A stretch of 61,391 nucleotides of DNA, the filler included, from Jimgerdemannia flammicorona (taxonomy: Eukaryota), in NCBI GenBank assembly GCA_003990765.1. It is 2 parts of 2 records of this genome, joined end to end, with 100 filler letters (N's around TTAATTAATTAA, not from the genome) between each part and the next. Parts side by side here need not be neighbours in the genome. Positions count along the whole stretch, not along the records: positions 1 to 30,659 come from RBNJ01000432.1; 1 more part is not named here. The stretch is one strand, 5' to 3'. The notes under the pieces were generated by a model. The model was not told the origin of the DNA. It saw only the letters and a list, made by a program, of their open reading frames with translations, and made no database searches. Below, one piece after another: positions 1 through 55,666 of the stretch. Made by a program: the position numbers and the translations under genes. Positions within the stretch are counted from its first letter, which is position 1. Each line of letters starts with the position of its first letter.

Positions 1-740
1 AAAAAAAAAAAAAAAAAAACTCTTAATTGATAGTTTATATTGCAGGCAAATTTGCTTATAAAAAAAAAACTATCCATAAAATTTTTAATATTTATTTACT
101 AACTTATTTTTTGAAAATTTTTATATATATTTTTTATAAATAAATTTGTCTATATTAGATTACAGATTATCAATTAATAATATATAAATTAATTACTAAA
201 TTTTATATTAATAATATATTAATTATCTATTGAAAATTTGATTTAAATTTTTTATATTAGTAATATATTTCTAAAATTATATTATAATTTTATTAAATTT
301 ATAAAATCTATAATAAAATCTATATTTTTATAAAATATTTATATCTATAATTAAACTATTTAAAAATTTAAAGTAGTTTCTTTTATATTTAATATTTAAA
401 TTAAATATTTATTTATTATTAATATTTGAGTTTTAAATTAAAATTAATTATAATAATTATATTAATTATTAAATATAATTTTAAAGTAATAAATTATTTA
501 AAAGTAATATAAAAATATAATTTGCTTTATTTTTAATCTATTTTATAATAATTTTATATTTATAAACATATTTAATTTAATATTATTAATATAAATAATA
601 TTAAATTTATATATCAGAAGGTTGATAGAAAGAAAGACTAAAAATTCTGATAGTAAAAAAAAAAAAAAAACTATAGTAAAGTTAACTAAAAAGTAATATA
701 AAAGATAGAGAATAAAGTAAAGAAGAGTAAACCGATTTAT
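1..740. other. Extremely AT-rich relic sequence
   Basis: Almost no C or G over ~600 bp; consistent with an end-stage C-to-T decayed repeat; no recognisable coding signal. Confidence 0.5.
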
Positions 741-2192
741 AGTCTTATATCAGAGAGTTTATATTGAAGATAATATAGGAAATCTAAAAGAGAACTGCCA
801 GATAGTAGAGAAATTAAGATTATTTTAATATAAGTTATAAGAAATAATAAAAATACATAAGGAGAAAAGTAAGAAGATATGTATAAAGATAAGATAAAAG
901 AGGAAGCTAAGAAAGAGAAGAGAGAGAGGATGAGAGGGAGATATAACAATCACATGAATATGAGAATTTTCAATCCAGAAGAGCTCAGAAAGAAAAATAG
1001 CTGAGTATAAAATGATATAATTCAGCTATATCATCAATCAGAAGAGTTGACAACTTATTTTATTTTGCACATATATTCGCTACTAACGCGGGAATCTCAC
1101 TCACGAATATTCCCACCATTTATACCTCTGGTTGGCAGTGTTAAAAAAAAAAAAAAAAAAAAAAAAGGTGTATGTAGGTGAGGTACGAAAGTTTGTCTGT
1201 GTACCCTAGAAACTCGTGTTTGTGATCCAATTCGCGTATACTATTGTCATGGGAAACGGAGCTCATGAGACCAAATTCTGTACAACGGAAATGCCCCAAT
1301 TTTGGGAAGCTTTCACACATTGTCGTCGGCCGACTCCATCTTCGAATTCCATCACCTTGAAGTGGGGCGACGTTTGTTGCTGAGCGGTTTATATTTCCTT
1401 ACGCAAAAAAAGAGGCATACGACATGATGCACCCTGACGGATCAAAAAGCTGTTCAAAGTTAAATACTTTTAGTTATATTTGAATATTCCACAGGAATAA
1501 TGGCATACTACCACCTTATGGGATGAACGTATGTTGATATATTTATACCATGGCAATGGGAAAAAAAAAAAAAAAAAAACTCGTAGCACACAGTATCTCT
1601 TCGCACCGTAGGAAGTAGAAATGAGGGTTTCAGCTTTGGCCAGCTTGCTTCCGGGGCCACAATTTGCCATAACCACCAGGGAAGCGGGTCAGGGGTTACT
1701 GCCACCAATGACCATGAAAATTGTTGGACGGCGCAGTGTCCGCCAATGGGTTGCAAATGGTGGCGATAAACATGAAATGGAAAAAGGATGAGCGGGGCCA
1801 GGAACGTGCTTACACATAATGAGGATCGCTAATGGAGACACGGGTTATATATTTATGGCGAAGGGTGTGTTGAATAGGAGAGTGCCCGACTATGAGTGGA
1901 ATTGCTGATGGCAATTGAAGCTGAAGCAGACGGTAGGATAAATCAGCGGTTTACTCTTATTTTATATATTTTATTGATGTGCATAGGATTTTATTTATTT
2001 GTGAGCTATGTGCATGACGCAGATTTTAGTGGAACAATTTCAATATTAACAAAGCATACTAGAATATTGAAAATAATCATTGACCAATACTAAATACAAA
2101 GCCATGATGCAATACTCCACCACAACATGCAAAATCAAACAAGTCAGCAATCGCCGGCTTCGGCCACATTCTCCCGCGCACATACGCTGTTC

Positions 2193-4304
2193 TCATTGGT
2201 AGGTCAACATCAGGTCAAAATATACCTGCGAAGACAGCGAGATAATATTTTGTTAATTTTTGTATTCACGCCCATTCCGCAAATGCCGGGGTCATCCTCC
2301 TCTGGAGGATGCACTCACGTCATACTCCTCTTTTGACATCTGATCTTCTTGGGCCTCAGTGGTCATCTGCAGTGAAATTATCAGGCTGTCGATTGGGAGT
2401 GGAGGACATAGTAGTTGATCAGTGGGAGATGCTCAATTTAGTGCAGAAAAACTCTACAAACTTACCACTTGCGAGCAGCATGTCATCATCGACCAGCTTT
2501 TCCCATCGCCGGCTCCCTGCTCTCTAGCTTTGATCTTGTGACGTTCGCTATACCGATCAAAATGTGAAATTGTTATTCGAAATTTCAGGTGCCCCACAAA
2601 ATTAATAAATCCTTTTTCCCTTCACATCACTACGATCCGACAACCCCCTCCCCCGGCACATACCACATCTCAGCCTGGTAATCAAACATCTGCATAGCGT
2701 CGCAATCTACCTCGCCATCCCAATTGAACACGTTAAAATTTTCCTCTGCGATACCGAGCGTTGCATCGCCATCGGCTTCCGGCTGGTAGTTGGCGTAGTA
2801 TCTCACCAAGCCTGGTCAGGATGTGATGGAGTGGGTGTGAAATGAATGAGTTTGTTTTTCTCGGACGCTATTGTAATTAATACGCATCCATGCGGAGACA
2901 ATGATAAAGTATGATCTCAAAGCAACATCCGAACTATCAATATCAATCGCATCTCCTTTGTCAGTCGTGTCCTGCTCCTCGTTCGCCTTCACCTCCTTCT
3001 CGTTTACGGCATCTCCATCGATCTCCTTGCCGCGACCGATGGCGCTCTTCTGATACCAGATAGGCAGGGTATTCTGCATCCGCTTGCGGTCGGCTTCTTC
3101 CTGCCTGGCCCGAAGCATCGCCACGTCATCTGTCTGCAGGTCCATGCTGATCAAGGGCATGACTTGCCCATAACCGATTGTGTATTGAGAGAGTATGCTG
3201 ATATTACAGGGAGGTTTGTTGGAGGAGCGAGAAGTTGAAAAAAGAATGAACTCTTACTGGGGTCATCGGCGGGTTTTGGCACGTGGTGGGAGCTGCGGTG
3301 GGGCCGGGGCCAGGGAGGGGGCTAGAAGATGGAGATATCGGTTAGCGGCTGATATTGTGAGGTTGTTTGCGTATCACTGAAAGGTGGTACAGAACAACAA
3401 ATGAACAAGCTGCGGTAATGACCATCGTATCAGTCCTCTTCAACAACTCGACAATGGGCCGGGTTTGTTCTTGTATCCTAATCAGCATAGTAGACAACTG
3501 TCGTCAAATGTTGCACGCTACCATGCCAACAAGCACCCTCCTCACCCCTCTCCCAATCTCAAATGCACCTCGCCAGTCGGTCCTTCGTTCTCGGTGATCT
3601 CGATCATTTGCAGCAGCAGAACTCGCCAGCCCGCCCCACGTCAAACGAGAGCACCTCGAGAGAGCCGTAGGTTCGCTTGCAAGTCTCGCAGATGAAACCG
3701 TTGTCCTCGGATTCCTGAGGGTTAGAGATTGGAGTGATGTGCACGTCGTTCGAGGACATTGTGGAACTGAAAGAAAAACAAGACAGCCGGACACAACGAA
3801 AACAACTTACTCTCACACGTACCGTCCTTAGGCTCTGCTTTACCATTTCCTGCATCATGTAGAGCTTTCACTTGACCACGTCAACAAACTGCTTGTAGTC
3901 GATATAGTAGTAAGTTATTGAGATTGCGCGCTGATTGGACGAGAGATGCTCACTGTGTGATTGCAGTTGGTGTGTGTGGTGATTTTGGAGAATAGTTTAG
4001 AAAGATGAGGGATGTGGGAGGGATGGAAGAGTTTTATTCATCAACTCCTTACGATTTTATCAGCCGGTCTTGCATAAGCTTGCCACAAATTTTGTGAACC
4101 TCTCGGACGGACACATTGAGGAATTGGGAAAGTTTCTTGTCGGTCATACTGCATTGCAGAAGTAATCATTGCTTTAGATACGAGAACCTGGTAATAAATA
4201 CCCCGGATCATTGGGTTCGATTTTGTTGAGAGTGTCGAGGACGATGGTATACTGGTGGTCATAGAACGGGCAACGCGGCCCACAAGTATTTTTAGGACGT
4301 CCAT
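2193..4304 (-). pseudogene. TFA1: Transcription initiation factor TFIIE alpha subunit, multi-exon, disrupted
   Basis: Manual splicing gives MDVLKILVGRVAR/FYDHQYTIVLDTL, VHKICGKLMQDRLI, YYYIDYKQFVDVVK*KL, zinc ribbon GFICETCKRTY...GEFC, EQTRPIVELLKRTD, KRMQNTLPIWYQKS and acidic tail QMSKEEYDVYFDL, in TFIIE-alpha order with GT-AG introns. Lesions: frameshift ~4262-4268, TGA at the conserved Trp (3868-3870), stop/frameshift at ~3604. Confidence 0.85.
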
Positions 4305-4848
4305 GGCAAGGAAAGAGTCGGTGAAAATAAGGCGAGAAGAGAAGACTGTTTTTTTTATCGTCGCATGCGTTACGTGATTTTACGGAATATTCAGCAGGAT
4401 AAAATAATATTTGCAAACTTGTCATAATGTAGTACTACAAATTACTTTTTGTTATATTACTACATATGGGGACGTGAGCGAATAGTTTAAGCAGCTAATA
4501 TTGAGCTTATTTTATTTTTATTTTACCACATTCTTTTAGCAAGAGAAACTGTTGCACAAGTCTAAAAGGCAAAGTTCCGACAGAAAAGCCGCTCATTCTC
4601 ACCACACAAAGAGAGTCCTTGGTATTACGTAAAAAACACGTTAAAGCCAACAATACTGATACTTTGAATAGCATGACAGATTATGTACTAAATGCCCACA
4701 CATTGTGCGGCATATTGTGGGTTTCGGGTCGACGGGCATGATATCAGACACTATGAAGGAATATGTTTAAGATTTTTTTCCCTCTGTATCAAATTCATAT
4801 TATATGTTAATGTCATTTTGCTTGTCTATGAAAGGCATATGTATACAT

Positions 4849-6441
4849 TGTCACATAGTGGGCGCTGAGTTCTCCAAGTATGTCAGATTCTCTTCAAGGT
4901 GTATCTCTTAGACCAACTACAAGTTTCTTATAAGCTAGTTCTATTGGAGTGCCTTCCCAAGGTCTTATAGTCCTCAAACTTCTTATCTTTAAACTGTTCT
5001 GTTGTCTCTTGGATTTACTTGCATGGAATTGAGTAGAGGACTGGAACTTTTGTGCTTCTGAGTGGTTGGGTACTTGAATGCTTGAGTATTTTTAATACTG
5101 ACTTTATTTCAAAGGAAATGAGAGGAACATTTATACAGAATGTAATTCAATAATTGCTAAGATATAAAGTTAAATATAAAATCCAATAACCAAATAAGAC
5201 ATTTGAACATAGAAAACTTCAGTTGTAAGTACAAATTCAAGTGCTCATACAATTGATTGTATAAGATCAGAATGCTGGAATAATTTCTGACAGTTGCATG
5301 AAGTCAGAATGCCAGAATATTCAAGTGTTCAAATAAATAGTTACACAAACAAATTAGAGTAGAATGTTCAGAATTCTGGGGGCTTCCTCTTCATCACTGT
5401 CATCAAGACTGGAGGTCAGGGACAGGATGTCTTTGAAGAAAATGAGGTCAGCAGATATTTCTATAAGAGTTTTATTCATTTTGTATGTGTCAGTTAGCAA
5501 GGTGATGTCATCACTGATTTGGTGGTAGTGGCAAGAAGATCAGGCGCTCTCTAATCTATGATGTTTTCCTCTACAAAGTAGGGGACAAATGTGGGATCTT
5601 GAGAGGGTCTGATCTGGATACTGGGGCCTTGGAATACTGAGATCAATTTTTCTAGAAATTGATCTGGATTGTTCTGAAGGATAGAATTCTAGAACTCTTC
5701 CACCTTATCACTTTTGAGAGTAATAGTGGATTGGGCTTCTGTGGCCATCATGGCTTTCAGTACATCTATGTAGTAGGCTGACAATTCCTTAAAGTCTGAG
5801 ACTCTGGTATACTCCAGGTTGGGGATTGACTAAGGTATATATCTAAAGACTTGATGGATCTTTTTGGCTACCCTCAATTTATATGCATCTATAGAAGTGA
5901 TATCTTGTATTTCTTGAAGACTGGCCTGAGGGAATTCCAGACAGAGGAGATTTCCTATTTCATATTCCTGCCACATCCAGAGATATTTGGTGGCAGTAGT
6001 AATCCTTGTCTCTATTTCATAACAGTAGAGAGTAAAGTGATAAGGGTCACTAATACTCAGGTTGAGGCTAGAAATCCTTCTGGTATATCTTTATGGCTCT
6101 TCTGATATCTTGGAACATCCTTTCTTAGACTGAGAAGCCTTAGTGATTCCTGGATCTTGAGGTTTGGCAAGTAGTAGGCATTTTATTTATAGTGAGTCTT
6201 TCAAACTATTTCAGAATTTTGTGAGTCTTATTTGAGTTACTGCTACTACAGTTTCTTAGTCCTTCTTTTATATTTCTTGAGATGTCTATTTTATAGTCAT
6301 CATGACTTATAGTTTGTTATCATTGCTTATCTTGTAGCCTATGTAAGTTATGCCATATAATCTTCTTATACTCTGATCTGGTGACTTATAAGAAAAGGCT
6401 ATCTCCTGTAATGATGTTACTATTCTGAGATCACCATTACA
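4849..6441 (-). mobile_element. Decayed long LTR-like relic containing an accessory ORF
   Basis: Minus strand: purine tract GAAGGAAGA directly followed by TGTAATGG at 6441 (same arrangement as the Gypsy PPT/LTR junction at 45137); TATAAAT...AATAAAG module at ~5100-5140 arranged as in the Gypsy LTR; probable TGTGACA end at ~4849. Confidence 0.5.
5354..6181 (-). pseudogene. Decayed homolog of the Gypsy accessory ORF at 45149-45979
   Basis: Translation across stops and frameshifts: MPTTCQTS...WQEYE/IGNLL...DAYKLRVAKKIHQVFRYIP*SIPNLEY...EAQSTITLKS...ILQNNPDQFLEKLISVFQGPSIQ...ADLIFF, colinear with the 45149-45979 protein. Confidence 0.8.
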
Positions 6442-7060
6442 TCTTCCTTCTGAATAAGAATCTTTCCTTGAATGTTCTTATTCATTGATCTAGTTTAAAA
6501 ATTTTCTGATCCTATAACCTCTGGCAGGGGGTCAAAAAGTAGTATTTATGGGCTGGTATATTCCTTATATCAAAGAGCTCAAATTCATAATTGCTGCTAG
6601 AAAAGACAGAACTCATCAGCTGATACAGCCAGTACTATATCTATGAAATGAACAATTATGCTATTTAGCAAGAAATTCAATTTATACCAATTGCTGAAAT
6701 ATTTTTATTTTATTTTACTATAGGAAATATCCTTTATCATAATATAACCAATAGAAAAATATAAAACAGATTTATTTGTAGTATCTGCTCTTCTAAGATA
6801 AATAGATCAGATTGATTCAATATTCAGCAAAATGTATTATGACTACTAAGAGTCTACATTACAAGGATTTGATGATAGTAGTTATTAAAAGACAAAATAA
6901 ACAGAAGAGAAGGATCCAGAAGTAAGGAACTAAAACATATATAGCAAAATAGGCTAGAGTGACTAAAAGAGTAAAAGATGGCAGAATAAACTCAAAAACA
7001 AAACAAGATGATAAATATACTAGAAGAAAGGATATTAATGGTGAGATATTTACATTTTGT

Positions 7061-7621
7061 TACAATGTAGATCAAGTTGGGAGATTTGTACAGATACTAG
7101 AACATTGGCTGAGAGAGTGTAAGGTTCTGGGGGACTTTTGGATAGTAGTAGAGGACTGGCTGGAGGTGATGAGGAGACCAGATGGAGAGAGAGATCATTG
7201 GGAAGATTTGAGGAATAGGTTGGTGGGAGGTGTGGGCAATGAATGGCTCACTGTAGGGTGGGTTTTAGCTGTATGAGTAGGGCTGGCTGGACATTGGCTC
7301 TTTGTTTTTGAGGAGGGGTAATAGATGGGATTGCAGGAGAGGTTGCTGAGATGGGAGGGGTTGTTGGGAGATATATTGACAGAGTAATGGGTTGGATAGG
7401 GCCCCCAGGGTAGATGTCGGTACCAACTGGTAGAAGAGATCTGTGAATAAAGTAGTGGGTGGGTAGAGATAGTTAATGGCCTAATAGTCTTTAATCAAGT
7501 AGGTGTGAGAGAGGGGGGTCCCTCTAGGGAGATCAGTTAGAGGTGGGCTCAGTATATTATATATGAGATAAATGAGTGTATTAATAAAGAAAGGAGTCCA
7601 AGAGACTATATAAAAAAAAAA
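7061..7621 (+). mobile_element. 5'-truncated LINE (3' end of ORF2 plus poly-A) with 18-bp TSD
   Basis: GAGATATTTACATTTTGT at 7043-7060 and 7622-7639; body matches the LINE at ~60960-61391; ends AATAAAG..GAGTCCAAGAGACTAT(A)n. Confidence 0.9.
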
Positions 7622-7735
7622 GAGATATTTACATTTTGTAATAATGTTCAATTTTAATATTTCATCAAAATTAATATAGTAATTAATTATTATGTATCAC
7701 ACATAGGTTGAATATCATCCAGATATATAAATTCA

Positions 7736-7880
7736 GTGATCAAAGGTATCTGTTCATCTAGAGATGAAAGCGAAATAATGATACAATATGATGCTTATAA
7801 TTTATGGCTACATCTTGACTGTATTAATGAAATAAAAGATTCTCTAGATAAATTATATTACTGCCCTATATACAGTAGTG
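7736..7880 (+). pseudogene. PHD-finger relic
   Basis: IC-SSRDESEIMIQYDAYNLWLHLDCI...YYCPIY fits C4HC3 PHD spacing if Tyr codons derive from Cys by TGT>TAT. Confidence 0.55.
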
Positions 7881-7899
7881 TTAATAGTTATATATCTAA

Positions 7900-10100
7900 C
7901 AGAGTTTGTATATCTTCATCTGCAATCTCTCTTTATATAGTTGAGAAAGAGAGGGACCACCCTATTGCCAAAGAGCTAACTGATATCTCATCAGAGTTTA
8001 AAATATCAGTCTTTAATACTAATCCTTATATAGTATCTCAACCTTCATCTCTATCAATATTAGCAATTCAGTTTTCTGATTTTGTACATATAGATGAGAT
8101 TTCATCTTTAGTCTTAATGTCACTATATTCTTCTATATCATATTCTTTCTTTAATAAAACCTATAATTTACTTACATATTAGTCCTCTTTAACTGATAAT
8201 CAGTATATTTTAAAAGATATAGAATCTACTCAATTATTAGATATTCTACCAGATAATTTGAATGATATAGATATTAATACCTTATTTGATATTGATGAAT
8301 ATATTTGTTAATTAGCTACCATATAATGTATTTATACAAATACTGAAATTATATTTATTAAATCAAATATTTGTTAATGAAAATTTATATTTATTGATTT
8401 GAGTAGAATGTGCTTTTATTTATCAAGATCCATAAGGTAGATCCAAATAACATAACTATAAAATATAGTCAAGAGTCATGTATATAAGTCATATTATCAA
8501 GATTGAATTTCTATATATTATATAGAAAGTAATCTCTAGATTTCTGAAATTTGGTTAGCTCAAAATATCATCTGCCAATGAGATCTGATCAGCTCATTAT
8601 ATTTTGAATATTTGTCTTATAAAATGACTTTTTGGTAGTTAATCTCTTTGTAATCTTTTAGTAATTACATATATATCATCTTCATCAATATTGACAATTC
8701 AGTCTTCAGATTACTTATATATAGATGAGATTTCATCTTTAGTCTTAATGTTGCCATATTCTCCTATATCATATCCTTTCTTTGATGAAACTTATAATTC
8801 ACTCACATATTAGCCTTTAACTGATAATTAGTATATTTTAAAAGATATAAAATCTACCCAATTATTAGATATTCCATTATATAATTTGAATGATATACCT
8901 TATTTGATATTGATAAATATATTCTTTAATTAGCTGCCCTATGATATATTTATAGAAATACTGAAATTATATTTATTAAATAAAATATTTATTAATGGAA
9001 TTTTATATTTATTGATTTAAGTAGAATATACTTTTATTTGTTAAGATCAATAAGGTAGATCCAAATGATATAACGATAAAATATTATCAAGGGTTATATA
9101 TATAAGCCACATTATTGAAATATAAAAAGTATAAATTATATAGAAAGTAATCTCTAGATTTCTGAAATTTGGTTAGCTTAAAATACTATCTATCAATGTG
9201 ATTTAATTAGTTTATTATTATATTTTGAATTTTTGCTTTATAAAATAGCTTTTTAATAGTTAATATCTTTGCAATCAGTTAGCAATTATATATTTGAGCT
9301 TTGTAGTATTATGTATTAGGTATCTATTCATGTAGAAAAAAAAATTATAATCAAATATTATCTCTTCTCTTATATTTTCATCTGCAATTCCACTTTATAT
9401 AGTTGAGGAAGAGAAGGATTATACTATTGCTGAAGAGCTGACTAATATCTTATAAGAGCAGCAATATATGCATGAGACTTCAGTCTCTAATACTACTGAT
9501 CTGTATGATATTACCATCTTTATCTCTATTAATATTTGCAATTTAATCTTCAGATTATTTGCATATAGATGAGATTTATCTTCAGTCTTAATGTTATCAC
9601 ATTCTCCTATATCATATCCTGTCTTTGATGAAACTTATAATTCTCTCACATATTGGTCTTTGATTGATGATTAGTATATATTAAGAGATATAGAATCTAA
9701 TCAATTATCAACAACTGACATCCTACTAGATAATTTGAATAATATAAATATGTATTACTACCTTATTTGATATTGATAGATACATTCTTTAATTAGCCAT
9801 CCTATAACTTATTTATTAATAGAAAATTATTCTACAATAGACTGACTGAGAATTTGGTTATTCAAGTAAATATATTTTACTCTATAATCCTAAACAAATA
9901 TTTATATCTTTTATTATTAACAGCTATAATATAGTATTATAGATACATATTGGATATATTGTGTTGCAGAATTACTATAAAAGGACTGATTGTTTAATTG
10001 ATTTGAGTAGAGCATGCTTTTATATGTCAAGATCAGTGATGTAGACCCGAATGATACATCCAAGAGATGATGTTGAGGGTCACGTGTACAAGCCACATTG
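7900..10100. repeat. Three diverged tandem units (~0.6-1 kb)
   Basis: Marker TAGATGAGATTT(C)ATCTT.AGTCTTAATG at ~8091, ~8720, ~9565; marker ATTGATTT.AGTAGA...AAGATC at ~8393, ~9011, ~9997. Confidence 0.8.
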
Positions 10101-10201
10101 AAGGTCAGTCAGCTATGTAATTTTTCATAAACAGTCACAAAATTGCACAGTCATTATAAACATTCGACATGGTATATGCCTCTTCTATATAATTCTCTAC
10201 A

Positions 10202-11125
10202 ATGTCGAACCACAGCCAGAACAACAGCTTGAACAACTCTCCAAGCCTCTTGGAAAAGTCCGCCGTCAAGCCTCCCGCCATTTGTATGCCATCAGCCTTA
10301 TTATTCCTCTTCTATCCTAAGAGTAGCAAAGCCTAGGGCTAAATGCCCTCTTTTCTTTAGGTCAGAACGGCGACCTGAGCAGCAACCTGGACGACCTGAA
10401 CGATATACCAAGTAGGCGCTTGGAAGAACCCACCACTAAGCCGCCTGCTACTTGTATGCTGTTAGCTTTTTTTTCCTTTTCTATCCTAGGAGTAGCAAAG
10501 CCTAGTGCTAAATGCCCTCTTTTCTTTAGGTCCTTACATTCTGGGAAGCGATGAAGATAAAATCAATCGCTATTTCGCCAAATGTGAGCAGGTCGTTTAT
10601 CGCCACGTATTCAAATTTCACCGGATAGTGCTAAGTTATTCTATGTTCTTCAATTAGTCTATAATATCTCCAAAGAAGCTGCTGCACTCAAATTTCCTAT
10701 AGTTCGCCACATTCCTGGAAGCGACGACGATCCCATGGTGAAACACAACCATTTGATAGCCAAAGGTGAGCAGATCGTTTGTGTCGCCAAGTGTTCAAAT
10801 TTTGCCAGATAGTACTAAGTTATTCTATGTTCGTCAATCAGTCTACAATATCTCTAAAGAAGCCGCAGCCAACATATATCATAGTTGGCCAGAGGATATT
10901 TACCCAGACGGCATTCTTTACCAGATCGTCGAGCTTATCTACGACATCACGAACCTTATCTACTACATCGTCGCCTTTATCTACGACATCGCCGATCGTC
11001 TGCTTTTTGCGATGTATGTTACTTCGCCTTCTCTGACATGTCTTTCATACAGAAACCAGGAAGTTGATTCATCATATCTTTCTATCTTTGACCATTCAAG
11101 GGATGCGCAGCATTTCTCTGACTAG
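10202..11125 (+). CDS. Hypothetical protein, 6 exons, internal exon-intron duplications and heptad repeat
   Basis: Exons 10202-10283, 10361-10453, 10530-10583, 10658-10765, 10842-11013, 11053-11125 join in frame via GT-AG introns; CpG retained. The last 39-bp intron is frame-neutral, so the 3' end is uncertain (alternative ORF 11064-11393). Confidence 0.6.
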
Positions 11126-11739
11126 TCGGGCACTTCAGGTCATCAATGATGCCAACGAAGTCTACTATTCCTTGATAATGAAAGGAATCATGGAGATCGG
11201 GGCAGTGGACTCTGAGATTTTGTATATGGTGACACCCGTTTTTAGCAATGGCAATTGGGAATATAAGGCGTTCGACCAAAGATCATATCATACATATAAC
11301 TATGTAGGTGACAGGCGGGTGAACATGTACATGCATTTTTCGTACCGTTTCATGAACTGGTATCTGGTGGTGAGTGACATCGTTGTTGCGTAGCTTTGCC
11401 AAGTAACGAATAAAGATTGTGTTGTATATGTGATCAAGTGTCGTCAAACAAAACTTGATTCCAATTTTCCTGCTGGTGTCGTTTGAATGTTACGTTTGCG
11501 TCTTTGTATTCTTCTTCCCCATTCACCCTCCTAAAATCCCCAAGACCGCCATTCAACCACAGTTCGTGGACCTCAGCCAAACCAGTATCATACTGTTTTC
11601 TCACTCGATTGGAAAGTCATTATATCCAACAAACTAATGTCACTGAACACAACATTTATTTATGCAAAAGAGCCTTGCATCTTGGGTGTAAATCCATGGT
11701 TAAGAGACCACTTGTATTCACACGTCACCATGATTTTAG

Positions 11740-12510
11740 CCCACCCTCAATTGTGCATTAATTATCTCTCCACATAGTTACAGAGCTATATTTTGCTAGA
11801 TATATATGATATCTGAAGGAATAATGCTGGCCAGGTGACAGCTCCGGACTAAATCAAAAAAGCCTGAGCCTTTGTCCCACCCTCAACAAACCACCCGGAA
11901 AATGTTAAGGGTGGAAATTTGGTTAATCTCCAATCTGTTCGTAATTGCTAGATATATAGAAAGCCTCATAAATCGAAGACTGAGCTAGTGACCCACCCTC
12001 AAAATTTTGTTGAGGATGGGAGAACAAATGTTGAGGGTGGGTCACTACTCGGAATGATAGATTCAATGGGTGCGCCCCAAATTTTGCACTATTGCGTCTG
12101 GTATTACCTGATTTAATGCCCAATCTGGTGTCACTCTCAAGGCCAGAGTGCAATTGATAGTGCAATTTCGCAAGGCCAGATCTGGTATTACCCTGGAAGG
12201 CTAGATAGAGGCTGCAATTTCTGAAGCCGGATGTAGTGTTATCCCAAAGGCCACAGTGTGAAATTATGATCACAATGGTATCAATAATCAGTCTATTTTT
12301 CTATATTATGTTTTTTTGAGGCCCCAGGCTATTTATGTTGACAGGGCATATTTCCTACCCTCAACAAAAAAGCCTTGTTAGGGGATTATATTGGATGGTG
12401 GACAGAAATTTGAAATGTTATAATATCAAATAGATCAAATTTCAATTTGTTAAAAGTGGGAAGAAATTAGTAACACAATCTCACTGACAAATATGTGTTA
12501 AGGGTGAGCA
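11740..12510. repeat. Cluster of direct and inverted CACCCTCAA motifs plus short tandem repeats (probable DNA-transposon subterminal region)
   Basis: CCACCCTCAA and its inverse TTGAGGGTGG recur at ~11741, 11878, 11905, 11993, 12010, 12030, 12356, 12498; TCTGGT.TTACC...AAGGCCAGA repeats at 12097-12255. Confidence 0.5.
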
Positions 12511-13436
12511 GAAGACATAAGGTATTAAATTTCTATTTTTGTTGAATATTGACTCTCCTAACAGAGTTACAGAGTGATGTTTACAGAATACCTCAACTAT
12601 AATATATAGAAGAAGAACTCATTCTCTGTGAAATCACTATTATGCTCCCTAATCTTGGTAAGATACCAGGCTTTGCTAATTAGCCCCTGCTGCATGGTAG
12701 GAAGTAGAGCACAAATTGTAGTCTATCAGGAAATTAAAACAGCCATCTAATTTCAATCATTTGCTCTCACTATATTTCATTCACCCTCACCATATTCTAA
12801 GAAGATTTGCATTCTGGTGACTATCATTTTTGCTCTTAGAACTAGATGAGGTTCACAGAACTGGAAGTTTTGGGATGAGACCCATGAACTATCAGTTTTA
12901 CTTACAGAACTAGAAGTTTTGCTTGGCAAACTGATAGTTTCAGAATAAGGCCAATATCTTTGTAGCAAGAGTTGCTGACTCTTAGCAAGGGTTGTGAACT
13001 CAGTAAGGCCAACTCTATAAACTCTCAGTATGGGTTGCAAACTCTTGGCAAGGACTGCAAATACTCTGCCAAATCCTAAATATAAACAAAAATAAGTTTC
13101 TTAGAGGTCATGATTTTTTTTTGCCAGTCTTATTACAAAATGACAAAACAAGTAGTTATTGTAAAATTGATTCATACTATCTACTCTTTAGCTATTTATA
13201 TTACTGAAAAATAATACTAATAATATATTTTCCTTCACTTAATAAAATTGCTCCCATGCTTTCCAATCAGCATACTTATTGATGAGGTACTTGTTATATC
13301 CAAATAATATATCTTGGCCTTATGCCTGTATAGTTAGTGGCAGATATAATACTGTTATGGCATGGAATAAGGTGAACATTTCTAATGATGGCATTAATAC
13401 CAATAATATTAAAGTTATCAGTATGGATGACAACAG

Positions 13437-13670
13437 TCAATGTTTTTGCCGTAATGTCGATCTACGCTAGGGAGGTATAACTATACTACGTTTTGCATAA
13501 TGTCAACTATGCTATGCTCACGTGATGTCAATCTTCATGATAAAACACCAATAACCCCGTGTCACTGAAATGACCATGCATCACCCCGAAATCCTAGGAA
13601 AGAAACCTCAAATAAATGATCGATTGTTCTATATTTGGGTGGAAACACACGGTATAAAAGACCGGCCCAA
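13437..13670 (-). repeat. Ngaro split repeat B2
   Basis: Near-identical to 13953-14185. Confidence 0.92.
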
Positions 13671-13704
13671 CCACTATGTATATATATGTAGGGTGAGGTG
13701 GGTG

Positions 13705-13952
13705 GTAATGAAATGCGTATGAATGTACGGAAGCACAAAAGCGTAAGTATAAAGCGCGTACTAAGTAATGTTGGGTGAATGGTAGAATTACATATAGAAG
13801 TAATGCGCCTACCGCGCTAGTACCAAAAAAGGAAAGACTACGCCTGATTTAGACATGCCTTAGACAAACAATGGCGTTGAAACATTTTGGGCGCTATATG
13901 CCCAAGACCTTCCTGCATTCATTGACCTGTGGTCTCGAGCGAGCCCCCTCAT
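13705..13952 (-). repeat. Ngaro split repeat A2
   Basis: Near-identical to ~18893-19140. Confidence 0.92.
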
Positions 13953-14185
13953 TCAATGTTTTGCCATAATGTCGATCTACGCTAGCGAGGCGTAACTATA
14001 CTACGTTTTGCATAATGTCAACTATGCTACACTCACGTGATGTCAATCTTCGTGATAAAACACCAATAACCCTGTGTCACCGAAATGACCATGCATCACC
14101 CCGAAATCCTAGGAAAGAAACCTCAAATAAATGATCGATTGTTCTGTATTTGGGTGGAAACACACGGTATAAAAGACCGGCCCAA
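13953..14185 (-). repeat. Ngaro split repeat B1
   Basis: Near-identical to 13437-13670; abuts A2 directly. Confidence 0.92.
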
Positions 14186-14364
14186 ATGTTATATGTAAAA
14201 TGTGCGGGATGATGATGTGTAGCAGTGTGAGTTGGCAGCGCTGAAAGAAAGAACTCAGCCCAAATGAAGTAAAAGGGAGTTATAGATGTGGAAATGCAAG
14301 TGGAGTAGATGATAGAAAGGTGCCGAAGGCTTAATAGAAAGGCCGCGCCCAATGTCGATGATAT

Positions 14365-14730
14365 GGCTGGTGTCGCGAGCCGCGCGGTTAAAACTGAGGG
14401 CAGGTGTCGCGAATCGTGCGACAGCCAAGAAGCTGATTTAATGAGCCCAGCGATCGAGGGATAGAACTGGTGTCGCGAGTTGCACGGGGGTCCGAGTAGG
14501 CTGGTGTCGCGAGCTGCGCGATAACGAAAAGAAGGAGGGCTGGTGTCGCGAGCCGCGCAATGTCGGAAAAGGTTGGTATCATGAACTACATGGTGGCAAG
14601 AGGCTGAGGTGGGTGGATTAAAGGCTGGTGTCGCGAGCCGCGCGGTGATGTAAGGCCGATGAGGAGAGGTAAAGGCTGGTGTCGCGTGCCACACGGGACC
14701 TGGAATAAGCTGGTGTCGTGGGCTACGCGG
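14365..14730. repeat. Array of ~9 copies of GGCTGGTGTCGCGAGCCGCGCG with variable spacers
   Basis: Copies start at ~14365, 14399, 14465, 14499, 14538, 14571, 14623, 14674, 14708. Confidence 0.9.
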
Positions 14731-14754
14731 TAGAAAAAAAGGAACGGGAAATCG

Positions 14755-15818
14755 TTAACCGCAAGTAATATGAGTAACAGAATAAGTATTACGAGTTAAC
14801 GAAGCCCGAAGGTGGAGAATGCGAGAAATAGGCATGTGAATATAGCCTTTAAATGCCACGCTCTCCCACCGACCCAACATCTGAATCTTGTAATCGGATA
14901 AACTGGCCGCAGCGGCATTGGATGTTGCACCAATCCGAAAACTATGCCCGGCGTAAAGAAGTGGATTCAGACCAATCCGTGGAAGTAACACGTGAAGACG
15001 ACTAATGAGATAGGCCGAGAGAACGATCGATTCGCGGAATGCCAGAACAGAGGGGTGTCGGGTGGGGCTGGGTGCACCAGGTAAAGAAGGCGAAGTAAGG
15101 ATACAACGCATGGCGTGGTGGGATCCGTTTTGGCAATAAAAAGTATTGCACCCTGGCGAAACGGGTCTGTTTTAGAGGCTGGCAGGGTGAGCATAATATG
15201 GGTGGGGTCGGCAATGCTAGGTTGAAAAACCACAGAGCCACGGGATAGCTGGGAAATGGGATCGAAAGACCCGTCCCACGTAAATTCGCCGGAGCAAAGA
15301 AAGCCGACATATGCAAGCGACATCACGGTCGCAAGATGCAGATCGTCATAATCAGATAGCCGAAGCAAACTGATAAGACTGCGAAGAATACCGAGCGTGA
15401 TAGGAAGCCGAGGTCGAGTTGGGCGTATGCCTAGCCACCGCTTCACGCCACGCATCACTTGGGGAAGTTGGTAAAGACCGATGAACGGATCGGCAAAACC
15501 GGAGTCGATGTGTAGAGAACGAACGGCTGAGAGGTAACGTTTGATTGTGGATGGTTGAAGCCGTCGCAAGGCCAAGCTACAGACCCACCGCATTAGCACC
15601 AGTTCGGACGCGAGCAAAGGCCCGCCGGAGGCATGATTACCACCATGGAGATTGCAGAATTGGAGGAAGCTGTGTTGTCCCGAAGAGTATGAGCGGCGCG
15701 TTGATTTTGTTAGTCCGAACCACAAAAAGAAGGCAACAACGGGTGGAAGCGCGGAATGCAAATGATACCAATCGCAGTCGGGAGCATCTGAGCGTAAGGG
15801 GCAAGATGACGGAAACAA
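14755..15818 (-). pseudogene. Tyrosine recombinase of the Ngaro element
   Basis: STIKRYLSAVRSLH, GFLCSGE (catalytic R>C), SKTDPFRQG, GHSFRIGA, LGRWES...Y; frameshift near 15050. Confidence 0.92.
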
Positions 15819-17500
15819 GGAAGATCAGTGTGAGATAAAGCATCAGCAATGCCGTTATCAGACGTCGAGATGAATATGGCGCGAAGTTGAAAAGCGTGAT
15901 GCGCCATTTGAAAATAGAGCTGGTGGAGAAGTTCCAGCAGAAGAGGGTTGCATGAAGAGCCCGAGTTGATAATAGCGACGACTGCCTGATTATCAGAATG
16001 AAGCAATATACGGTGAAAACGCCATTGAGCACCCCAGGTAGCAGCAGCAGCGACCACAGCGTAAAGTTCCTTGAACTGAATGTTGCACGAGGCTATATCG
16101 GGAGGCCAGGGAGCGGAAAACTATTCGCTATTGAAATGTGCACCAAAGCCTTGGATCCCGCTGGCATCTGTCCATAATTGTGCATCAGGCTCGTGGAACC
16201 ATGCCATCGGATGTATAACAGAAATACCATTCCAGTGGGGTAGGAATTCGAGCCACCAATGAATGTCGGCGTAGAATTCCTCATTCAGTGAGATATGGAA
16301 TGAGGCATTGCCAGAAAGAAGGTTGATAAACTGCCGCAGGAATGGGCGGCCCGGCAGAATGATTTTACAGGCAAATGCCAAGGAACCAATAAGAGACTGC
16401 AGTTGAGGGCGTGTACATAACATGCGTGATAGCCACTGCTGAAGGGTGGCGAGCAATGTGTCAAGCTTGCCGAGAGGCAGGTGGGCTTCCATAGCCATTG
16501 TATCCAATTCGATGCCCAGAAAGACGAGTGACGTTGTCAGGTCTTTGACCTTGCGCTCTTGAATCGACCAGCCGAGATGATGACAGATAGCAAGAAGTAA
16601 ACGTAGGTCAGAGAGGGCAGACGGCCAGAGCGGCGGTGAAACGAGGAGAAAATCGTCGATGTAGTGGATGAGCGTGCATATGTTGTGATGGTGGGCGATC
16701 CATGCGAGAAGTTCCGCGAAAAGGTTGAAAAGAAATGGTGACGAGGATGCGCCAAAAGGAGCAAACCGATCGAAATAAAACTGCCCCGACCACTCGAAAC
16801 CCAGCAACTCCCAATCCGTAGGATGGATGAGAATATGACGATATGCATCGGCGAGGTCGACCTTCGATAGAAGACATCCCTGGCCAAAACGACGAACCAA
16901 GTCCAAAGCCTTGTCGAACTTAATGTAAGAGAGCCGGAAGGCGTCGGTATTTATGCTGGCATTCACCGAATCGCCGTGACGGGGCCAAGAAAGGTCGTGA
17001 ATACGACGCCATGCGCTATTAGAATTCTTCTTCGCAACGGTGCCGAGAGGAGATGAGCGAAAGCATTTGAACAGAGGGGATGAGAACGGGCCACAAATTC
17101 TACTGGTGGCGACTTCCCGCTCAATGTCAGACGTGATCGCTTCTGGGTGGTCAAGAGCGGAGCGATGATTATAGAACAGCAGGCGCCGACAAGGCCCATC
17201 AAAGCCGAGAAGAGCGCCTTGAGTAATAGCAGCGATGGCAGCCTGAGCTACCCATGGGGCAGGATACGACTGGAGCTCACGCGCCCATGTGACAGGGCGA
17301 AGAGCAGAAGAAGGAAGAGGAAAACGACGTAGAATGTCTTGAGCCGCTTCGTTGAGAGGGGTGGTAAATGGGCGACGGAGTAGGGTATTTGGAGTGGCTG
17401 GGGGTATGTGTAAAGAATAAATGGGGGCGAGTTCCTAGGGGTGAGACGATGGATTGTGGGAGCATCGATACCACGGATGATCACTATTGCAGCGAGAACA
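15710..17500 (-). pseudogene. Reverse transcriptase-RNase H of the Ngaro element
   Basis: RRIHDLSWP, KVDLADAYR, APFG, YIDDF, FLGIELDT, WTDAS, KELYAV, SDNQAVV, NGIADALS; TAG at 16121 replacing a Trp. 5' limit approximate. Confidence 0.92.
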
Positions 17501-18886
17501 GGAATGCACATAAGGGCATCCTTTTCTATTGCACCCAGGATCCTTCATGGGTGATCTATCGAATAGAACGCCATTGTATGCCCAACAAGTAGACCATTGA
17601 GAGGCTTTCTCGGTAGATGGAGCAGAGGAGCCATCAGTAAGATGTAGCCCCTGTTGTACATTGCGAGACTTAAAGGGCTTAAGCAGATTAGATGTAGAGG
17701 TCGGAGTTCATGGACGTTGATGTAGACTAAGGATCATAAAGAGGTCGGGGTCGCGCCGGGCCCAGTGCTCGCACCATACCAAAGAAACACTGTCATTCGC
17801 GATCTCCGCCAGTCGTTTTGTGTGAAAGGAGACATGATAATCGAGAAGCGCGGACCAATACGATGATGTTGATAGTGAAATAAAATCCGTGGCATATGAA
17901 AAGAATGGAGTAGGATCAGTGAGGCCTGGGTATGTGTCATGAAGAATGCTGAAATACGTAAGCAGGGCGGCGAGGAAAGCAGGGACGTCCGGAAGATCTT
18001 TGATAATGGATGGCGGCTTTTGAAGAATGATCCGGGTACCCAATTCATCAAATGTTTCGATGAATTGAGCATCAGGAAGACCACCGATAGAAACGACGTT
18101 TCGCTCCAAGAAACGGCCGAGCGACATGGCAGTGAACGAATTGTCGATGACCGCGGCCAACAGCCGTTGATTAACATGGGCATATTTTAAAGAGAGATTG
18201 ACACCTCGGACAATGGTATGGGCAGAGACGACAGAAGGAGGTATAGGGATAGACTCACCCTGGGGATTACCGGCAGGGCCGTGAATGCCGGTGGACCAAA
18301 CCGAAGGGATAGTCAGTAAGGGCTGGGATGAGGATGGGGATATGAGAACTGCCGAAAGAGAAGCAGTAGCGTGATCGATAAAGGCTTGATTGATGATGGG
18401 AGTCATGTCTTGACCAGAAATGGCAGGAACTGCACTAGCCGGTGCTGCCGAAGATACGATGTCAGGGCAAGAGCATAAGAGCTGAAAAAGTTCATCGAAC
18501 CAACAGTCTTGCGCAGATGCATGCTCTTGGAGCTGAGCAATGCTGGCTTCGATGGAAACATCAAAGGCCGGTGTGCTGAAAAAAGCTGGTCCGGCCGCCG
18601 TAGCGCTAGTAGGAGCCTTGGATGTGGCACGCGCTGATAGACGCATGATTCGGCAGGGTGCGGAAGTAGAGTGGTCAGGGAGGGTAGTGAGATAATCCAC
18701 AAGGATAGCAACATTGGGGTTCTCGCTATCAGATTTCAGATCGTCTTGCAGAAAACGGAGCACACGCTTGATGAAATTAACGTCCGAGCGGAAAGGGCAG
18801 GTGGCGGAGCCCAGGTCATGTTGGCCCTTCGACGTATGGGAAGGGTCGTATCGACACAAAAGGCAGGAATTTGCGGAGAGGACCAT
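17500..18886 (-). pseudogene. Gag-like ORF1 of the Ngaro element
   Basis: Long ORF (17708-19003 track) with likely ATG at 18886 just inside A1; N-terminal CxxC...H...C; position upstream of RT. Confidence 0.7.
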
Positions 18887-18892
18887 GGTAAT

Positions 18893-19140
18893 GTAATGAA
18901 ATGCGTACGAATGTACGGAAGCGCAAAAGTGTAAGTGTAAAGCGCATACTAAGTAATGTTGGGTGAATGGTAGAATTACATATAGAAGTAATGCGCCTAC
19001 CACGCTAGTACCAAAAAAGGAAAGACTACGCCTGATTTAGACATGCCTTAGACAAATAATGGTGTTGAAACATTTTGGGTACTATACGCCCAAGACCTTC
19101 CTGCATTCATTGACCTGTGGTCTCGAGCGAGCCCCCTCAT
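18893..19140 (-). repeat. Ngaro split repeat A1
   Basis: Matches 13705-13952. Confidence 0.92.
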
Positions 19141-25149: not shown

Positions 25150-28100
25150 TCTCTCTCTGCTACAATTCATGTTACACACACTTTACAACACACTTTCAAT
25201 TCGTTTATTGGAGAAAGATATTAAGGAGATATCAACCAGCAAGTAAGCCGATGCACGTACTAGGTTGGGTAGATCTGGGGCCTTTGACTGGTAACATGTC
25301 AGGAGAGGGTATGGGCTGGGGATGGGTTCTTTGGTGGCTCAAGTGGACTGAGCAGCTTGGGGAGTGGAGGTGGCACTGGTGGGGGGGCTGGAGGGCAGCA
25401 GGGGAGGAGCTTTGTGGACATGCTGAGAACTGGGGGTTGGCCGATGGGCACTCACAGTAAACAGGCAGGAGGGAAGGGGAAGCAGAAGGATGGGAATACT
25501 GGGGGAGCTGGGCCTTTGCTGGTGGGAGGTAAAGGAAGTGGAGTAGTGGCTGGGGGTAGTGGTGGGACTGCTGATGGTGGCATGACAGTGAATCAGGAAA
25601 AAAAAAGAGATGTGATGGCTGATGGCCAGGGGGGGCAGGGGTTCCTGATGTGGAAGGGGGACCTGGTAGATGGTGTAATGGGAATGGTAGTGGCCCCATT
25701 GCTCAAGAAGTTGATTTTGGCATTTGCGGCTACCTTGTGCTTCCAGGGCTTGGCAGTGATGGTGAGGATGGTCTTGGGGCTTATTTCGAAGCAGGTGGCT
25801 GGGGCGGCCTCAGTGAAGTTCTTGAAGGGCCTGGAGGGGGTTGAGGTGGGCTTTGAGGAGGCAGGTCTACTGGATGAGGCCATGAAGACTAGAGTGGTAA
25901 TTGGGGAGGTGGTGGTCCCCATGGTGAGGTGCTTGAGGTGGGACCCCAGGGTGGTGCAACTTCTGGTGAGGGGGGTGCCCACAGTGACTAAGGAGGAGAC
26001 TAGGAGGAGGGTGGAGGAGGTGATGGTCGAATATGGTGACATGGTGGATATAGGCTTTCAGTTGTGAGAGAGGACAATGTTCAGGACAGGTGACATTGAT
26101 GTTAGGATTCAGTTGGCAGGGAAAGAGGCCACAGGGAAGACAAGTGACTGGCTATTGGTGCTGATGTGGGGGGGCCTTTGTCTGTAAGGTATTGAGGGTG
26201 AAAGGGAGTGAAGAGGAGGAGGAGGACTTGATGGAGGCACTGGAGGAGTTGAGTGGTGCTGTGGAGAGGAGGGCAAAGGCCTGGAAGCTGTATGAGGAGT
26301 CCATGCATCTGGAGGTTATGGATGGGAAGCATATCTGTACTGATAGGAAGTAGTGGGAGTGGGCCCAGGGACATAAGAGGCAGAGGGAGCTTTTGGTAAG
26401 TATGACAGAAGGGGTGAAGGAGAAGTTGGTTGGAGCTGAGGAGTCTGGAGGTGTTAAGACCAGTGTCTGGGCTAGTAAAGGAGGAGAGGAGGTGGTGGCA
26501 AATGAGGCAGGGGCTGGGAAGACACAGGATAAGAATCCATATACTGATGGTACCTTCAAAGTATGGGAGTCAGAGTTGGATACCACCCCCCCCCCACTTA
26601 TCAGGAGGGGCCGGGCTGGGAAGAGAGGAGTGACGGAGGATGTACTGATGCAGGGGGCCCAGCGAGTGCAATTTGGGGTTCCTGATGTAGTGAAAGGGGG
26701 CCAGGTAGTGGTAGTTGGCAAGGATGAGCTGGTGGATATCCCTGAGGAGGAGTGGGATGAGGCTGCCAGTGTTGGAGCTGACACCACAATGTTGGATGCA
26801 GGGTGGCCAGGGACTCCAGGAGAGAAGGAGGTGGGGAACTTGTTGTGGATGAGCAAGGTGATGGCAGAGACTTTGGGGGAAGTAGACCTGCGAGCGATGC
26901 CTAAGGAGTATTGGGCATGGGTTCTGTATGGTGATGGAGTGGTAGAGGCACTGAAGGTGGAGATTCTCGCAATTTTCCTAGAGGAGGAGGGATATGAGGT
27001 TGATGAGGTGAGGAAGGCAGAGCTGGTGGTGGTCGCTGGTGAGCAGGCAGTCTACTGTTGGGCAGAGTGTCATGGACTACAGCTCTGGCAGGAGGCCTGT
27101 ATGGAGTATCATGAGGACTTTGAGGAGTGGGAAGATGGGGCAATGGTGGAACTTCTGGGAGAGTTAGAGGCACAGGAAGCTGGGGAAAGGGAACTGGCTG
27201 CTGAATGTATCTTGGAATTAGTGCAGGAGGAGCCGAAGGTAGACTTGTAGAGGATGGGATCACAATATATCATTCTTCTTTATGAACAGTACAACCAACA
27301 TTTTCTCTTTGAATGTGAATGGGTTAAGGGGCTCTGGGCAGCGTAGGAATATTTTTACTTAGCTCAAGGGATTGGAGGCTGATCTCTTTTTACTACAGGA
27401 TATTCAGTGTGAGGATGAGGATAATTGGGTAGAGTGGACTAGGGAATGGGGTGGGGCTACTGCTTGGTTTGGGAAAGTAGCAATTCTGGTGAGGAAGAGC
27501 AGAGGAGACTTGGGGGGAATCAGGAGTTGGGGCGATTGCCTGGTCTGGGGAGATTGGCATTAGCCAGGGTGGGAATTAGTGAAGATGGGCTCTGGCTACT
27601 GCCCTGCAGCTAGAGGTGAGAGGACTGCATGGATTAGAGGGCTGCTGGAGGAGGGTATTCTCTTGGAGGAAGGGGTAGATGTTCTCGGTGGGAACTTTAA
27701 TATGGTTCAGGATCAGTATCTGGACAGAACTGATGGAGGGAGGAATGCAGGGGGGAGAAGTGGAGATCTGGATGCTTGGGAGGAGGTGGAGAACTTGAGC
27801 TCCTTAGGGGATTTGGGCAGAATATGGTAGGGCGATACCAGGGTCTACACACATTGGGTGAATGGACTGGATACTAGGATTGACTGGATTCTGACAGCCA
27901 GGTGTTGGGGTGTTGATGTTTGGAAGATGTTGGAGGTAGAGTGGTGTCCATGGTCTGATCACTGGGGACTTTTGGGGCAGGGACAGTTTGGGGAGAGTGG
28001 AGATGGACCCAGACATTGGTGCCTTAACTCCTCCCTGCTGGCCGAAAAGGGGTTGTGGGACTCTTGGGCAGAGGACATTCAGGCAAAGGTCTGTACCTGG

Positions 28101-30214: not shown

Positions 30215-30759
30215 TGTAAGCGCACAACCTCCAAGCCACCGAAATCACACGTCACCCTCTGGACAAGCCACCGAAATCACACGTCACCCTCTGGACAAGC
30301 CACTGAAATCACACGCGACCTCCGAACAAATCTAGAAATCACCTGTCTGATCATGAAGCTGAGTCAAACCGAAGTCACAGTGCACAAAGCTGAGTCAATA
30401 CAAAGTCACGGAACACAAGATTCACACAAACGGAATCTTACCAATCAGGACCAAATGCATATATACCGAGCACCGAGATACGTCGAAACAGAGAACCAAA
30501 ACAAACAACAACCACAACTTCCAATACACACAAACATGACCACCGAGATCTATAACCGCATCCGCGCTGACATTTGGAATGCCATTGTCAACCAAGCCAC
30601 ACCCCCTCTGCCCCTCATGAATATCCATAGCCTGGCACCCCTCTACTTTGTGGAAGCCCNNNNNNNNNNNNNNNNNNNNNNNNNNNNNNNNNNNNNNNNN
30701 NNNTTAATTAATTAANNNNNNNNNNNNNNNNNNNNNNNNNNNNNNNNNNNNNNNNNNNN

Positions 30760-41899: not shown

Positions 41900-42397
41900 T
41901 GTAATAACTCTTATTTCTACCCCTCTCTTATCCTTTGAATAATCAGGGAAATAAGGTATTATTTAGAGACTTAGTATACAATATATACCAAGAAGCCTTC
42001 AGTGTAAAGAAGTGCTTACTTACATAAAAGTAGTTATAGTGACAATGCCTTTCTTATCCTTCTTATCAACCATAGTTATAAGAGACTTGTTCTTTGCTGT
42101 GCACAGACTGAATTCACCTTAGAATTCAGATTCAATTGGGGTTTATTTAAGTTTTTGTAATTTATATACTTATCTCAATTCTGGTAGAAGTTAGCTAGAT
42201 TTCTAAAGTTTAGTTAGAAACACTAAAGTCACTTAGATATTATTACTAAGACTCAGGAGAATAGATATGTAGAGAGGGGGCTTGATTCTTATATCAAGGA
42301 CTAAACTAAAACTGCTTTATTTTGAATAGAAATTGGGGGGTATTTATACAAGTTGGTTTGCAATTTTTGACTAAATATAAGTAACTAATTTGGTAAC
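41900..42397 (-). mobile_element. Partial LTR of the same Gypsy family, interrupted by a LINE
   Basis: TGTAATAACTCT...CTACCCCTCTCTTATCCTTTG matches 44336 and 52684; stops at AATTTGGTAAC where a poly-T tail begins. Confidence 0.9.
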
Positions 42398-52680: not shown

Positions 52681-52683
52681 TGT

Positions 52684-55665: not shown

Positions 55666-55666
55666 T

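Follow-up and report, generated by a model that had tools for sequence, protein, structure and literature searches.

Can a complete protein gene lie inside a retrotransposon's long terminal repeat (LTR)? The question is raised by a stretch of 61,391 nucleotides from Jimgerdemannia flammicorona (NCBI GenBank assembly GCA_003990765.1), here called the window, which joins parts of two records of this genome through 100 filler letters, positions 1 to 30,659 coming from RBNJ01000432.1. The window contains a dUTPase-bearing Ty3/Gypsy chromovirus, element B, whose third open reading frame (ORF3, or copy B) has a diverged homolog elsewhere in the window, copy A. A reading made from the sequence alone had placed copy A inside an LTR, in its U3 region. 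We find copy A to be a dead copy of a genuine accessory gene, and this gene defines a small orphan protein family. Its location inside a U3 is plausible but unproven, and we judge the case to be evenly balanced. Both copies, element B and the landmarks belonging to them lie on the minus strand.

Two Dead Copies of an Accessory Gene

Copy A (5354-6181) begins with an ATG at 6181 and ends with a terminal stop codon at 5356-5354. It is read in three pieces: the MPTTCQ start (6181) is in one frame, the conserved main block (6186 to 5509) is in a second frame, and the tail is back in the first. Two frameshifts, one near 6090 and the other near 5520, and at least five premature stops are met along this reading path, and no intact frame is left. 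Copy B (45149-45979) is read in a single frame and is likewise not intact, with four premature stops, all of them TAA. Both copies present in the window are dead.

The homology of the two copies is beyond doubt. In tblastx, 6069 to 5611 aligns with 45865 to 45407 over 153 amino acids at 37.9% identity (E 2.8e-34), while nhmmer matches copy A to copy B with an E-value of 9.5e-19. A Smith-Waterman alignment, in which 64 of the 178 aligned residues are identical, scores 299 against 31.9 +/- 5.0 for 1000 shuffles (maximum 64), so that the alignment of the two ORFs is significant by shuffle statistics as well (z = 53). The peptide strings that the sequence-only reading had compared by eye are all found where it put them, at 6181-5435 in two frames for copy A and at 45979-45287 in one frame for copy B. 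Its alignment over the whole length holds for the conserved core, but taken alone the C-terminal pair ADLIFF/ADLIDF is not significant, as its pairwise score was reached by 80 of the 1000 shuffles. The tail of copy A closely matches the metagenome protein P0006, and the family profile weakly (i-E 0.03). At the DNA level, the two copies resemble each other only within the ORF, and the similarity ends at its borders. When the window is scanned with the family profile, only these two copies are returned.

A minor observation concerns the decay of copy B. At least two of its four premature TAA stops align with glutamine in the intact relatives, which are known here from protein sequence, and this would fit C-to-T decay.

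A Small Orphan Protein Family

When 1.84 billion representatives were searched in full with a profile, seven proteins were returned with E <= 1e-3, four of them with E <= 1e-30; a word-indexed search returned one relative. Several of the seven profile matches are intact. All are on short metagenome-type contigs, fall into clusters of one or two members, and are annotated as hypothetical proteins only. A scan of metagenomes added one relative locus, L001, which has an intact B-type ORF of 291 amino acids, while no relative was found in a scan of viral contigs or in two scans of prokaryote genome contigs. The family consists of P0003-P0007, P0010, P0011, and the L001 ORF, with membership based on similarity across the core WxEYEIG ... 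AKKxHQ ... NPDQ.L ... F.GP.I. Copy A shows significant similarity across this conserved core. The intact proteins P0004 and P0011 (247 amino acids) are A-type, with a C-terminal LNFLL where copy A has LNILL, and P0005 and P0010 are B-type. P0006 is also counted as A-type; its contig measures 908 nucleotides, and those of P0004 and P0011 measure 1625 and 2375.

Past selection on the accessory protein is supported by the way in which its copies have diverged. At codon positions 1, 2, and 3, nucleotide identity is 0.68, 0.78, and 0.54 between copy B and L001, 0.48, 0.62, and 0.39 between copies A and B, and 0.50, 0.66, and 0.33 between copy A and L001. This order of identity, with the second position above the first and the first above the third, indicates that the protein was once under selection. 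The sequence-only reading had already proposed such selection, and both the codon-position identities and the intact homologs found elsewhere bear it out.

The family has no match in Pfam or among PDB sequences. Nor does any part of two complete polyproteins of the lineage match when compared by profile (probability 0.1-0.4%). The ESM Atlas gives weak leads, with scores of 0.85-0.92 to unnamed clusters that include some Mucoromycota and Basidiomycota members. The C-terminal tails of the family carry a net charge of -16 to -19, with isoelectric points of 4.1-4.4. No hydrophobic segment was detected in five family members, in which the maximal Kyte-Doolittle mean over 19 residues is 0.59-1.05, and these show neither the transmembrane segment nor the signal peptide of an env-like ORF3. 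The AlphaFold2 model, with a mean pLDDT of 44.6, is unreliable. In our best explanation, the protein is soluble and 250-340 amino acids long and has a helical N-terminal domain; its tail is strongly acidic and bears short hydrophobic motifs, and the protein may act as an adaptor or regulator by way of this tail.

This is a real, small orphan family tied to dUTPase-bearing Ty3/Gypsy chromoviruses, and its gene is a previously undescribed accessory gene. Whatever the answer to the LTR question, the ORF defines a conserved and formerly selected protein family with no known domain.

Arrangement of the Gene in Element B and in L001

Element B (44327-53456) provides the reference for the organization of the lineage. 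Its 5' LTR (52675-53456) runs from TGTAAT to ATTACA, and its 3' LTR (44327-45138) is 85.8% identical to it over 810 columns. Between the two, the pol region (46640-50879) has stops and a frameshift, and encodes, in this order, a dUTPase (E 2.3e-31), protease, reverse transcriptase (RT), RNase H, an integrase zinc domain, a Tf2-type SH3 domain, and a chromodomain (E 1.5e-12). The element therefore displays the features of a chromovirus: paired LTRs, the order protease-RT-RNase H-integrase, a C-terminal chromodomain, and a polypurine tract (PPT). Its ORF3 lies between the chromodomain and the 3' LTR. The stop codon of this ORF leads directly into the PPT, AAGGAGGGAAAGA (45139-45151), which includes the last bases of the stop, and the PPT is followed by TGTAAT. 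The order is thus ORF, PPT/TGTAAT, about 320 nucleotides, then the LTR core with its TATA box and polyadenylation (polyA) signal. L001 shows the same arrangement as far as its contig goes, since the stop codon of its ORF is directly followed by GGAGGGAGGAT and TGTAATAAG, and the TATA box of its LTR is off the contig.

Element B is old, its own LTRs being only 86% identical. A partial third LTR of the B type is seen at 41896-42398. It is about 81% identical to LTR positions 272-800, has the same TATA/polyA module, and is adjoined by no ORF3 remnant.

Landmarks Around Copy A

Around copy A, the same landmarks are found in another order. Upstream of the ORF there is a polypurine tract, AGAAGGAAGA (6442-6451), which adjoins TGTAAT (6436-6441), the candidate 5' end of a U3. 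This hexamer is the LTR start of both element B and L001, and a TG directly after a polypurine tract is what is expected at the beginning of an LTR. The junction as a whole (6451-6436) lies 260 nucleotides upstream of the copy A ATG and is the only one of its kind there. Eight purines followed by TGTAAT occur once in the window (6449-6436), as compared with 0.38 expected per 122 kb on both strands, or about 0.003 per kb on one strand by our own scaling of that expectation, which is not a tool output. A search for the 12-mer GAAAGATGTAAT that tolerates up to one mismatch finds it only at the copy A junction and at the 3' PPT/LTR junction of element B, and the two junctions agree at 11 of 12 positions.

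Downstream of the ORF, after 219 nucleotides, comes an LTR core common to B-type LTRs, TGTATAAAT-N19-AAATAAAG (5102-5137), with TATAAA at 5135 and AATAAA at 5108. It supplies the promoter and polyA signal expected of a U3-R-U5 structure. The core pattern has three matches in the window (copy A, the 5' LTR of element B, and, at 42315-42350, the partial B-type LTR) and none in 100 shuffles. The putative R/U5 would then occupy 4849-5101, its 3' end at 4849 being the one proposed by the sequence-only reading. Between the copy A stop codon (5354) and the core (5137), there is no run of nine or more purines, nor is any purine-rich patch visible by eye.

The order around copy A is thus PPT/TGTAAT, 260 nucleotides, ORF, 219 nucleotides, then the LTR core. 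The sequence-only reading had noticed the junction at 6441 and the TATA/polyA module at about 5100-5140, and it had concluded that the cassette lies on opposite sides of the PPT in the two families. These points all stand: in element B and L001 the stop codon runs into the PPT, whereas in copy A the PPT is 260 nucleotides upstream of the start.

Does Copy A Lie in a U3?

Placing copy A in a U3 is the simplest reading of the three landmarks. In the A family, the gene would lie downstream of the PPT/TGTAAT junction and upstream of the LTR TATA/polyA core, while in the B family it lies just upstream of the polypurine tract. Plus-strand priming from the upstream PPT would put the copy A gene in U3. 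If that tract, as we infer, was the working plus-strand primer site, U3 by definition comprises the whole stretch between TGTAAT and R, so that both LTRs would receive a copy of the ORF. Promoter, gene, and polyA signal would then form a self-contained cassette in each LTR. Copy A itself would represent the 3' LTR of a 5'-truncated or else non-autonomous element. With rather more doubt than confidence, we can go one step further and propose a lineage of chromovirus-type retrotransposons whose U3 holds the accessory gene in full, its own TATA box upstream and the polyA signal of the LTR downstream, while sister families keep the gene just outside of the LTR; the LTR boundary would have moved across the gene by a switch of the PPT used for plus-strand priming.

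Several observations weigh against this location. An LTR should occur at each end of its element, or else singly between target-site duplications, and neither is seen within the window. If the match of the two ORFs is set aside, 4701-6500 has no counterpart on either strand of the 61 kb, and the repetition that defines an LTR is therefore not observed. The positions 6441/4849 are not flanked by a target-site duplication, and the proposed ends do not form a terminal inverted repeat, as GTGACA at the proposed 3' end (4849) is not the mirror of TGTAAT; within the unit, ATTACA is found only at 6412 and 5146. Neither pol nor a chromodomain was found before the PPT of copy A. Pfam finds no domain in any frame of 1-13500, and a profile of the SH3 and chromodomain of the lineage, which scores 95 and 59 bits on element B, scores no more than -1.4 bits on 6182-7057, within the range of shuffles. 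The PPT of copy A is therefore not preceded by pol, unlike that of an ordinary autonomous element. With AT-rich non-coding DNA in place of pol and no second unit, copy A can at best represent the 3' LTR of an element that was truncated or non-autonomous. The similarity to element B is also limited to short landmarks. The 80 nucleotides after TGTAAT do not significantly resemble the LTR start of element B (p about 0.5 under plain scoring, or 0.05-0.19 when the scoring tolerates transitions), nor is their MAFFT alignment significant. The region downstream of copy A resembles the element B LTRs weakly apart from the core (z 1.1-3.7; flanking similarity from 5160 to 5012). No blastn match links the flanks of copy A to the flanks or LTRs of element B, and the upstream local alignment reaches a z of only 0.5-1.4. 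Finally, because the junction and the core were first picked by eye, the chance estimates given for them are somewhat optimistic. Of the LTR-embedded ORF that the sequence-only reading had described, the PPT/TGTAAT upstream and the core downstream are thus confirmed, but the window offers no second copy, no target-site duplication, and no remnant of pol.

The same landmarks can be read in other ways. The ORF may have been internal, as it is in element B, with the LTR of the A family beginning somewhere between 5354 and 5137 and its PPT now eroded, the upstream junction being either a PPT of the central type or a product of chance. Both copies whose context is clear, B and L001, do have ORF3 directly upstream of the PPT, a TGTAAC (5345) that could be such an LTR start lies 8 nucleotides past the copy A stop codon, and the heavy decay of copy A is in keeping with the loss of a PPT. 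Chance is also not negligible on the scale of the whole window, where 30 of 100 shuffles contain at least one purine run followed by TGTAAT. However, 5353-5137 lacks any purine run or purine-rich patch, the 8 nucleotides preceding TGTAAC being TTTGTTTG, and the chance expectation falls to the value of about 0.003 scaled above when only 1 kb on the correct strand is considered. Moreover, the agreement of the upstream junction with element B at 11 of 12 positions includes the integrase-end hexamer, and this is dispensable for a central PPT. We consider an internal ORF unlikely, while still deserving to be taken seriously.

A less probable explanation, which we regard as doubtful, is that the locus is mosaic debris, in which a deletion or an illegitimate recombination fused the 3' end of one element (the PPT and the first LTR bases) to another element's ORF3 cassette and LTR core, so that no working element ever had the present order. 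The region shows both age and rearrangement, the element B LTRs being only 86% identical, and the DNA upstream of the PPT is AT-rich, non-coding, and broken by a fragment of a long interspersed nuclear element (LINE). In addition, the TGTAAT at 6441 is followed 29 nucleotides later by ATTACA (6412-6407); these are the termini of B-type LTRs, and they could mark an LTR that has been almost wholly deleted. Yet such a fusion leaves no visible breakpoint signature, requires an additional event as well as a pol-less upstream element, and does not provide the ORF with a PPT downstream. It is very improbable, finally, that copy A is a host-gene pseudogene, domesticated from or captured by a retrotransposon and no longer part of a mobile element. 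This would agree with the fact that the database members are only hypothetical proteins on short contigs and that no pol adjoins copy A, but copy A is flanked by two retrotransposon-specific landmarks that element B has too, the PPT/LTR-start junction on one side and the LTR TATA/polyA core on the other.

Two further candidates were tried and rejected. A chromodomain-like string, EFELFDIRNIPAHKYYFL (6586-6524), located upstream of the copy A PPT, gives a tblastx E-value of 5, no Pfam match at E <= 10, and no match to the lineage profile. A pair of LTRs formed by the flanks of copy A itself (6441-6182 and 5353-4849) shows no similarity (E 0.36).

A Candidate Internal Promoter

In all three contexts, a TATA box stands before the ATG of the accessory ORF, at -91 in copy A, -73 in copy B, and -80 in L001. 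In copy A, the candidate cassette promoter is TATAAAAG (6265-6272), and the TATA box that the sequence-only reading had assigned to this ORF, about 85 bp upstream, is indeed the one at 6272-6265, 91 nucleotides before the ATG. In copy B, TATAAA (46047-46052) is 73 nucleotides before the ATG, within a 12-mer that recurs without change around the TATA box of the element B LTR. Such boxes are not frequent, as TATA[AT]A[AT] occurs only five times in the 7539 nucleotides of the element B internal region. From these positions, we infer an internal promoter for the accessory ORF. A subgenomic messenger RNA (mRNA) would start at this TATA box, 75-90 nucleotides (73-91 as measured) before the ATG, and would end at the polyA signal of the LTR.

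In L001, a 33-nucleotide motif is present both before ORF3 (170-202) and in the 3' LTR (1481-1513). The two occurrences are 82% identical (E 1.4e-5, in a tiny search space), and the one before ORF3 lies about 94-126 nucleotides upstream of the TATA box. The motif may be a shared regulatory element, although it is an isolated case.

Comparison with Known Systems

Retroviruses provide the closest positional parallels. In mouse mammary tumour virus (MMTV), the superantigen gene sag is located within the U3 of the LTR. The nef gene of human and simian immunodeficiency viruses (HIV/SIV) and the bel/bet genes of spumaviruses overlap U3, and in spumaviruses an internal promoter drives the 3' accessory genes. 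To our knowledge, these retroviral cases (MMTV sag, with nef and bel as partial overlaps) are the only ones in which a whole protein gene is found inside an LTR.

If copy A is in a U3, it would resemble sag in being a complete ORF between the PPT/U3 start and the LTR promoter and polyA signal, duplicated along with the LTR. It differs from sag in that its family has no sequence relationship to it (no Pfam or PDB match) and no hydrophobic segment, in that the host element here is a chromovirus-type retrotransposon without env, and in that the cassette seems to have a TATA box of its own. As with nef and bel/bet, the gene is a 3'-end accessory gene reaching into U3, but nef and bel/bet do no more than overlap U3, whereas copy A would be contained in it entirely, and no homology to them was found. 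The TATA boxes 75-90 nucleotides before the ORF in copy A, copy B, and L001 recall the second, internal promoter that spumaviruses use for their 3' genes, a likeness drawn here from sequence. The comparison with sag and nef suggested by the sequence-only reading is thus apt for position only: neither Pfam nor PDB sequences link the family to Sag, Nef, or Bet, and no sequence relationship to any known family was found.

Additional ORFs 3' of pol are already known in many LTR retrotransposons. Fungal, including basidiomycete, chromodomain Gypsy elements with a dUTPase have been described, some of them with an “add. ORF” of unknown function (PMC2864245). Element B resembles these in combining a chromodomain, a dUTPase, and an additional ORF. 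In the passages that describe them, the “add. ORF” is not placed inside the LTR (PMC2864245). For LTR elements of bdelloid rotifers, the relevant passages report lineage-specific third ORFs downstream of pol in dUTPase-bearing elements, treated as separate transcription units (PMC5408684). These ORF3s are env-like, GDSL esterase, DEDDy exonuclease, coiled-coil, or transmembrane proteins, and are said to be produced from spliced transcripts (PMC5408684). The family described here matches none of the rotifer types as given in those passages, and its ORF is read here as having an internal TATA promoter instead. A literature search for a retrotransposon with an ORF inside its LTR, done with narrow phrases and hence not proof of absence, showed no pertinent case among the papers listed.

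Should copy A prove to lie in a U3, LTR borders could cross a gene through a change of the plus-strand primer site. The gene dose per element would be doubled, and the gene could outlive its element in solo LTRs. Every LTR, solo LTRs included, would be a free-standing expression cassette for the protein.

The Surrounding Window

The window as a whole is a transposon-rich eukaryotic region. Upstream of copy A, the AT-rich DNA is broken on the plus strand at 7061-7621 by the 3' fragment of a 5'-truncated LINE, which is similar to 60948-61386 and ends with A10. It is flanked by an 18-nucleotide target-site duplication, ACAAAATGTAAATATCTC in minus-strand reading, at 7639-7622 and 7060-7043. Still further upstream with respect to copy A on the minus strand, 8100-10100 is occupied by tandem repeats with a period of about 618-630 nucleotides in very AT-rich DNA (18-27% GC). 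Satellite DNA is one possible explanation for them, and the non-coding inner part of a non-autonomous element is another. At the beginning of the window, 1-750 is an extremely AT-rich, low-complexity stretch with 5-12% GC, and two N gaps lie at 30660-30759.

Another retroelement is found on the minus strand at 13444-19140. It has RT and RNase H-like domains and no integrase match, is bounded by 248-nucleotide direct repeats that are 96% identical (13705-13952 and 18893-19140), and has a 227-nucleotide tandem duplication at 13444-14185. Two diverged LINE copies, 72-83% identical and carrying endonuclease and RT domains, are on the plus strand at 25288-30128 and 53691-61391, the second with an internal tandem duplication of about 1871 nucleotides (53796-57543).

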